A stretch of 64,000 bases of DNA from Spirochaetes bacterium GWB1_36_13 (GTDB taxonomy: Bacteria > Spirochaetota > GWB1-36-13): assembly GCA_001829155.1 (NCBI GenBank), contig MIAO01000011.1, forward strand, positions 2,723 through 66,722, in the 5' to 3' direction. The position numbers and the translations under genes are program-made. The notes beneath the pieces are model-generated. The model ran no database searches, had not been told where the DNA came from, and saw nothing but the letters and a program-made list of their open reading frames with translations. Shown piece by piece: positions 32,095-32,465 of this stretch; position 1 is the stretch's first letter, and each line of letters begins with the position of its first letter.

Positions 32095-32465
32095 GGTTCA
32101 AATCCAAACCCCTAACCCCTTATCCTTAAATCTTTTAAGGACAAGGGGGAGTCCTCCGTGATTTCATCCATGAAATCACGGAGGACGGGGAAACCCTGCC
32201 TCGTGCAGGGTTAAAGAACAGAAAAAAGGTTTCCCGAATTTCTGCAGGTGCTCACTGAGCGAAATCGAAGCGTGCCGGACGGAGGGGAGGTTTATCACCG
32301 AATAAAAAAAACTTAAAATCAAAACCGCAAATTTATGACATCAAATTCTTTTTTTGCCGGAGGCACTTAAAATTTGCAGTTTGTAAAACCAGAAGTTTTA
32401 CTCTTTAAACTCCCCTTGTCTTCCTCCGGGAGATAAGGGGCTGGGGGTTTGTGGGCAAAAAATAT
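32095..32465. repeat. Structured inverted-repeat element (MITE-like) of ~370 bp. Its imperfect terminal inverted repeats are related to a 57-bp G-rich repeat also found at 51007-51063, and it contains perfect internal hairpins.
   Basis: Right end 32407-32463 (aaactccccttgtcttcctccgggagataaggggctgggggtttgtgggcaaaaaat) and left end 32105-32150 (its imperfect reverse complement). Perfect 17-bp hairpin gtcctccgtgatttcat-cc-atgaaatcacggaggac (32151-32186). An 8-bp hairpin aaccctgc-ctcgt-gcagggtt follows. Confidence 0.6.

Follow-up and report, generated by a model that had tools for sequence, protein, structure and literature searches.

A 57-bp unit occurs twice in the 64,000-nt stretch of DNA analysed here (the window). 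A sequence-only reading had described the ~370 bp around its first occurrence, 32095-32465, as an element bounded by inverted repeats in the manner of a MITE, and had proposed either a mobile or recombinogenic element or a structured small RNA, associated with accessory-gene junctions. What is this element, and does it end where its inverted repeats suggest? Our results make it very probable that both window loci are decayed fragments of a MITE-like family of non-autonomous DNA transposons, which occupies about 50 intergenic sites in an uncultured groundwater bacterium. The repeat is a new family of a familiar type and not a new type of system.

The individual sequence features that had been described were all recovered. 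The two 57-mers (32407-32463 and 51007-51063) differ only at one C/T position, and these 2 matches compare with 0 in 100 shuffled sequences; the similarity is wider than the 57-mer itself, with 80% identity between 32344-32474 and 50942-51073. The stem motif CCCCTT[R]TC-loop-GA[Y]AAGGGG was found three times in the window against none expected from shuffles, and the adjoining sequence AAGGGGnnnGGGGTTT has one minus-strand occurrence (32106-32121) and two on the plus strand (32435 and 51035), in matching orientations. The imperfect inverted copy of the 57-mer core is likewise present at 32105-32150, where the minus strand reads CCCCTTGTCC..GGATAAGGGG-TTA-GGGGTTTG. A perfect 17-bp hairpin (32151-32186; arms 32151-32167 and 32170-32186 with a 2-nt spacer) folds as DNA at -18.6 kcal/mol (z = -8.5), and a further one, hairpin 3 (32192-32212; aaccctgc at 32192-32199 and gcagggtt at 32205-32212), at -8.8 kcal/mol (z = -5.2). 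The whole region also folds more stably than shuffled sequences, with z = -5.6 on the plus and -7.6 on the minus strand, and it stands out as a spike of 50% G+C between flanks of 20-28% G+C.

The hairpin-module pattern CCCCTT[R]TC-loop-GA[Y]AAGGGG was then used as a query against JGI metagenomes. It was found in 49 stretches, 47 of which show long homology to the window element; the remaining two (L015 and L038) have the short motif alone in common and are not members of the family. The 47 stretches carry ~55 occurrences of the repeat, so that the element, whose copy number the sequence-only reading had left to be counted, is not single-copy. Almost all of them derive from one aquifer community; the sources are metagenome 3300025030, in which the contig of the window is also found, the overlapping Ga0154385 and, for a single stretch, Ga0116144. 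The same pattern had no match in 185,579 species genomes. When the ComM protein was used to scan this genome collection for the host and for an empty site, the best identity was 48%, and neither taxonomy nor synteny was obtained; the uncultured host lineage has no close relative among the species-representative genomes.

Alignment of the copies with long flanks showed that homology extends well past 32095 and 32465. Intact members are 640-680 bp long and non-coding, and consist of short terminal inverted repeats (TIRs), AT-rich arms and a G+C-rich core with two inverted 45-nt hairpin modules and three further hairpins. In the reference copy (L055:3145-3821, reverse strand, 677 bp, type A), the inverted modules lie internally at positions ~215-258 and ~577-620. 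The proposal of a ~370-bp unit delimited by inverted repeats like a MITE is therefore not supported, since these repeats are internal modules and the real termini lie outside them. At least two versions of the termini exist, which we call type A and type B (inverted repeats of the two end sets, TAGTCGACCCTGAAAAAGTC / GGGAGGGATTTTTTTCTGTGGCA).

The type A TIR is 22 bp long (TAGTCGACCCTGAAAAAGTCAA). Type A-like termini were found 31 times, and unrelated flanking DNA begins exactly there. Complete type A copies measure 379-677 bp, the full-length ones 637-677 bp and deletion derivatives 379 bp. All five complete copies are flanked by a 2-bp target duplication (ga, ct, tt, ca and aa); by our estimate from base composition, matches in five of five would arise by chance in about 2 cases in a million, although the sample is only five copies, in AT-rich flanks. 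The matching bases sit just outside the left and the right TA, which places the TA within the repeat and gives type A a duplication of 2 bp. The type B TIR (GGGAGGGATTTTTTTCTGTGGCA, ~24 bp) is imperfect, with 19 of 24 positions matching. In at least 13 copies the sequence continues for ~65 nt beyond a degenerate right TIR of type A, up to the end ..CCTTGCCACAAAAAAAAATTGCTACC; the left terminus that goes with it is GGGAGGGATTTTTTTCTGTGGCAG. Direct repeats of 9 bp flank the two complete type B copies (ATCTCAGAT for L023, GCCGCACAA for L053). Nine type B right ends share a mean identity of 96.7% in unrelated flanks, as against roughly 80-92% among the long type A copies, which suggests that type B spread more recently. 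Inwards of position ~62 the arms of the two types are homologous; type B therefore resembles a type A derivative in which the left tip was lost and new tips were acquired. In a third form, type C, a different left arm of 380 nt takes the place of positions 1-186; it was found only in the window and in L025. Target-site duplications are present only at the outer termini of other copies; none was found at 32095/32465 or around either window copy.

Aligned with this reference, positions 32080-32474 of the window correspond to the internal core of the 637-677-bp repeat and are not a self-contained element. The left core module (32080-32227, plus strand) is 92% identical to reference positions 187-325 and is the best conserved part of the family; it contains the inverted hairpin module at 32105-32150 on the minus strand. 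The middle of the core (32228-32406, plus strand) is divergent and partly deleted, with 72-85% identity to other copies, and the right core module with the 57-mer (32407-32474, plus strand) is 93% identical to reference positions 575-642. On the right side homology ends ~30 nt short of the outer terminus, and on the left lies the type C arm (31702-32079, plus strand, ~380 nt), whose only other copy is L025:5653-6038 at 85% identity and whose 101-aa open reading frame is spurious, with no Pfam match. The left arm has thus been replaced and the right arm truncated. A search of the window with the type A and type B TIRs found neither terminus at this locus, which therefore cannot transpose and is an immobile relic. 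The type C arm also contains a long imperfect hairpin at 31826-31912 (ccggcaggaaagagg..aaacggaga / tctccgtttcttttcccgccgg), which is kept in L025.

The locus lies in a 950-bp gap between a 132-aa open reading frame (31286-31684, minus strand) and an XRE-type HTH gene (32633-32920). More broadly, the stretch 29500-33000 has a low G+C content (20-30%) between gltD (28017-29438) and comM/yifB (33063-34598); it holds a Phd/YefM-like antitoxin, a 42-aa PIN stub, a DUF6575 protein, the unknown 132-aa protein, the element and the HTH gene, and looks like an accessory island. Just outside the element, a perfect palindrome (tacatctttaaagatgta, 32481-32498) lies within the best promoter-like site of the region (TTTACA-18-TATAAT, 11/12, 32478-32507), ~130 bp upstream of the HTH gene, and may be the operator of that gene. 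Between this palindrome and the HTH gene, the strain-variant contigs L007 and L008 differ in sequence from the window; both start at the palindrome and are uninformative on occupancy of the site by the element.

At the second locus (50874-51106, plus strand), the window retains the right third of a type A element, corresponding to reference positions 441-676 at 92% identity and including the second 57-mer at 51007-51063. It ends in a right outer type A TIR (51086-51107, minus strand, GAGTCGACCCTGAAAAACTCAT), which deviates from the consensus at 3 positions; the window contains no other true element terminus. Because the left two-thirds have been lost and a single TIR is kept, this copy is an immobile relic as well. 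Its truncated left edge (reference position 441) directly follows ATGATTATTGTTGCAGATTCTTCTCCTCTCATCACTCTAGCGATC (MIIVADSSPLITLAI), ~15 codons which in our reading resemble the start of a PIN-type toxin. The toxin-antitoxin remnant at 50718-50921 comprises a UPF0175-like antitoxin fragment followed by this PIN-like toxin start, and the open reading frame called there ends in element-derived codons, as the PIN-like start runs into the element at 50874. Gene and element are thus both cut at one junction, the pattern that a single deletion leaves. The toxin-antitoxin adjacency noted earlier accordingly stands for this locus, which abuts the remnant, but not for the first, since vapC at 29836 is 2.2 kb and two genes away from it. 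A general association with toxin-antitoxin genes was not borne out either: it is incidental, as copies occur in every intergenic context.

Across the family, all copies are intergenic, in convergent, divergent and tandem contexts and in both orientations relative to the neighbouring genes, overlapped only by a few short, unconserved open reading frames. Six full copies contain no conserved open reading frame, only short, non-conserved ones of at most 75 aa. A full copy folds with z = -10.8, its outer TIRs being paired. Conservation peaks at the outer TIRs and the hairpin modules, that of the modules being partly an effect of ascertainment, as the copies were retrieved through the hairpin motif. 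Independent short-read assemblies of this population break off within the element (window positions 32438, ~51077 and ~50888). Contigs on which the adjacent HTH gene or YjdM gene lies include the element or end in it; all contigs with the flanking genes of the window represent one population. Breaks inside repeats are the usual behaviour of short-read assemblies, and the assemblies of this organism fragment at these sites because they belong to a multicopy family.

Prokaryotic MITEs are recognised by TIRs, direct repeats, the lack of a transposase, an intergenic location and stable stem-loops (PMC3184786, PMC10969869), and bacterial ones are typically shorter than 500 bp (PMC10969869). The present family has TIRs, a flanking duplication, no inner transposase or conserved open reading frame, and many intergenic copies. 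Its full-length members of 637-677 bp exceed the typical size, which is a usual feature of MITEs and not a strict criterion, and the window fragments themselves lack the pair of TIRs, with no terminus at 32080-32474 and one at 50874-51106. In being non-coding, with TIRs of ~22-24 bp, target duplications and tens of intergenic copies, the family resembles Chunjie, Nezha, Correia and QMITE1/2. Chunjie, a MITE of Geobacter uraniireducens Rf4 with a length of 178-235 bp and 21-bp TIRs, has 9-bp direct repeats (PMC3184786, PMC10969869), the same duplication length as type B. Very stable predicted stem-loops, and truncated and internally deleted copies beside full-length ones, are further points of likeness to bacterial MITEs. 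In contrast to these, the core is G+C-rich in an AT-rich genome, nothing similar turned up among the annotated records and published sequence strings searched, no parent IS was found, and one core occurs on two sets of TIRs and target duplications. Two features, the large size and the presence of one core on two sets of termini, are uncommon for MITEs. In broad outline, Tn3-derived TIME mosaics (PMC4133298) and the nesting of pneumococcal BOX, RUP and SPRITE repeats (PMC10969869) share a modular make-up with the present family, in which type B looks like type A with new tips and units of a second small repeat lie inside some copies. The present termini, however, do not resemble those of Tn3, and the duplications measure 2 and 9 bp instead of 5 bp.

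This second, unrelated repeat family occurs in the window at 10750-10905 and as single units at 32253-32272 and 38472-38491, and elsewhere at L049:3600-3793, at L044 ~11180-11270 and in the left arms of L022, L023 and L051. Its unit of ~160-190 bp starts with caggctgtcgatt and has as its core a long hairpin of two inverted ~22-nt units, GGACACCGAGCGGAGCCGAGGTG / TCACTTCGACTCCGCTCAGTGACC; it looks REPIN- or MITE-like. The single 20-nt unit at 32253-32272 (plus strand, CACTGAGCGAAATCGAAGCG) sits in the loop of a TTCGGC/GCCGAA hairpin of the element core, as it also does in copies L037 and L053. Other repeats in the window are two direct repeats of ~112 nt (20867-20978 and 23088-23198; 90-94% identical, 2.2 kb apart), which flank two minus-strand open reading frames (21118-21795 and 21764-23032), and three tandem paralogous genes at 53490-57400 (332-345 aa, spacing ~1.3-1.4 kb), which share 75-91% nucleotide identity over hundreds of bases.

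The target-site duplications and the near-identical copies in different flanks point to movement of the element. With regard to the window, the earlier proposal of mobility thus fits the family, which is multicopy and has TIRs and duplications in other copies, but not the two window copies, both of which are immobile. In the mechanism that we propose, a DDE-type transposase encoded elsewhere in the genome would bind the terminal repeats, and possibly also the subterminal hairpin modules, excise or copy the element, and integrate it into AT-rich DNA between genes by way of staggered cuts; a stagger of 2 bp would give rise to type A and one of 9 bp to type B. The two stagger lengths would imply that two different enzymes mobilised the same core. 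In the ISfinder classification, duplications of 2 bp are made by the IS30 family (2-3 bp), the ISL2 and IS427 groups of the IS5 family (2-4 bp) and IS630 (TA), and those of 9 bp by IS4, IS5/IS903, IS1, IS256 and ISAs1. Type A presumably points to IS30-like or IS5 (ISL2/IS427)-like enzymes and type B, on the same assumption, to IS4, IS903, IS1, IS256 or ISAs1-like ones; the lengths of duplications and TIRs are compatible with these families, the assignment being one by duplication length alone. Type A is unlike the simple TA duplication of IS630, as the conserved TA lies inside the repeat and the 2 bases outside it are duplicated.

We searched for an autonomous IS with either set of TIRs by looking for TIR pairs 1-3 kb apart in all loci, by comparing repeats of more than 700 bp all against all, and by surveying the open reading frames of the window; none was found in the window, the 100 fetched loci or IMG/VR. 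A scan of IMG/VR with the core motif gave no match, and scans with the two TIRs gave 0 and 5 single matches. These five were taken as chance: each lacks an inverted partner on its fetched contig, and L106 and L102, which were inspected, have no adjacent transposase. Full type A and type B copies had no match by BLAST in plasmid and phage collections, and the TIR and module strings occur in no paper of the searchable literature. An Rpn/YhgA-like (Transposase_31) gene at L049:2184-3400, beside a solo type A TIR, was considered and rejected, as it belongs to a paralogue cluster (the gene and a duplicated fragment of the same gene) without flanking TIRs; it is probably unrelated to mobilisation.

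The alternatives to a MITE-like family concern above all the core, which is at least as conserved as the termini, with the same caveat of retrieval through the hairpin motif. This conservation could reflect a function of the core itself. It is conceivable, though rather unlikely, that the ~450-nt core is a selected cassette (a structured RNA, or a DNA scaffold that binds protein or switches between G-quadruplex and hairpin), which was captured by at least two unrelated sets of termini and hitch-hikes on them. We give this reading some weight because of the core conservation, the occurrence of the core in three shells and the compensatory substitutions in one stem. As to possible structures in DNA, the right module (GGGAGATAAGGGGCTGGGGGTTTGTGGG) contains four G-tracts, GGG-6-GGGG-2-GGGGG-5-GGG (32426-32453 and 51026-51053), that match the canonical pattern of a G-quadruplex. 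As these tracts share sequence with the 3' arm of the module hairpin, quadruplex and hairpin would exclude each other.

The same three contexts, types A, B and C, would also be expected if the core of 370-450 bp were the mobile unit itself, an inner MITE with the 45-nt modules as its TIRs that was nested repeatedly, and the modules are indeed true inverted copies and the most conserved segments. We regard this as improbable, as the edges of the modules (..caaatc in the left flank, tgggca.. in the right) carry no duplication, homology passes both modules by ~25-30 nt in all contexts without a sharp common boundary, and left modules often occur without right modules. Moreover, types A and B have arm sequence outside the core in common, so that type B looks like a derivative of type A and not like an independent host of the insert.

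Much the same low probability attaches to the core being a multicopy RNA gene, whose product would be structured and of small or medium size, or a cis-acting RNA, with its hairpins under selection. The strongly non-random folding energy and the good conservation of the core would be expected of such a gene, and some MITEs are known to yield sRNAs (PMC10969869). The perfect 17-bp hairpin is not a feature of the family: it is peculiar to the window copy, being absent from the 24 other of the 25 distinct left modules, which have a 4x4 internal loop here (..TGAAATCAAGTCGGAC; GTCCTCCGTGATTTCATCCnTGAAATCAAGTCGGAC or a near variant, -9.2 kcal/mol). The window copy alone reads ..ACGGAGGAC, four consecutive changes making its 3' arm the exact complement of the 5' arm. 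Changes that perfect a quasipalindrome are a signature of intrastrand template switching (PMC7202029), which suggests that the perfect hairpin arose by quasipalindrome correction through such switching. Hairpin 3 is the only stem with compensatory changes among the copies (3 pairs in 5 sequences, exceeding every one of 500 shuffles), but it is broken without compensation in five other copies, and hairpins 1 and 2 are invariant among the copies and give no covariation signal. The small RNA proposed by the sequence-only reading also found no counterpart in Rfam: the window gave no match at gathering thresholds, and a permissive scan (E <= 1) of the element and four full copies gave best matches of E 0.3-0.9, far below threshold and none of them credible. 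A conserved pair of promoter and terminator bracketing the core is absent; in a full copy the promoter-like sites point outward from the left arm, and the window copy lacks them. Both orientations to the neighbouring genes occur among the copies, whose multiplicity is already explained by the architecture of TIRs and target duplications.

The conserved modules, as imperfect G+C-rich hairpins in intergenic inverted pairs whose stem mismatch is strand-asymmetric (G-T on one strand, A-C on the other), are also reminiscent of REP, REPIN or BIME palindromes, for which the mobilising enzyme would be a RAYT transposase (Y1, IS200/IS605-like) that works on hairpins in single-stranded DNA. That the family is of this kind is very doubtful. 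No free units of 20-40 nt were found, the hairpins lying always within longer modules (~140 nt on the left, ~70 nt on the right) of a much larger TIR-bounded unit; the module pair is ~320 nt apart and not adjacent, the GTAG-type 5' motif is absent, and no RAYT gene is in view. Furthermore, Y1 (IS200/IS605) transposition produces neither TIRs nor target-site duplications, and complete copies have both, for which reason an IS200/IS605-derived PATE (subterminal hairpins without TIRs or duplications) was rejected as well. Least probable of all, and effectively refuted by the copy number and the varied contexts, is that the element serves the low-G+C island between gltD and comM as a site of attachment or recombination, with its left edge GGTTCAAATCC as a duplicated tRNA 3' end: the low-G+C stretch of 29.5-33 kb does hold toxin-antitoxin remnants and the DUF6575 gene, and GGTTCAAATCC resembles a tRNA T-arm, but ARAGORN found no tRNA in the window, GGTTCAAATCC is part of a simple, non-conserved hairpin (GGGTTT/AAACCC) of the family consensus, the same sequence occurs at ~50 unrelated intergenic sites, and there is no integrase among the neighbouring open reading frames.

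Returning to the family of MITE-like non-autonomous transposons, the findings leave the understanding of MITEs unchanged. For annotation, the family accounts for small spurious open reading frames such as those at 31782-32087 and 50699-51058, and locally it explains the junction at 50874 with its cut PIN-toxin gene. Both window copies remain in place as structured DNA between genes, where they are substrates for recombination and deletion. With one core on two sets of ends, each with its own duplication length, the family provides a tidy example of terminus swapping, by which non-autonomous elements change which transposase moves them.
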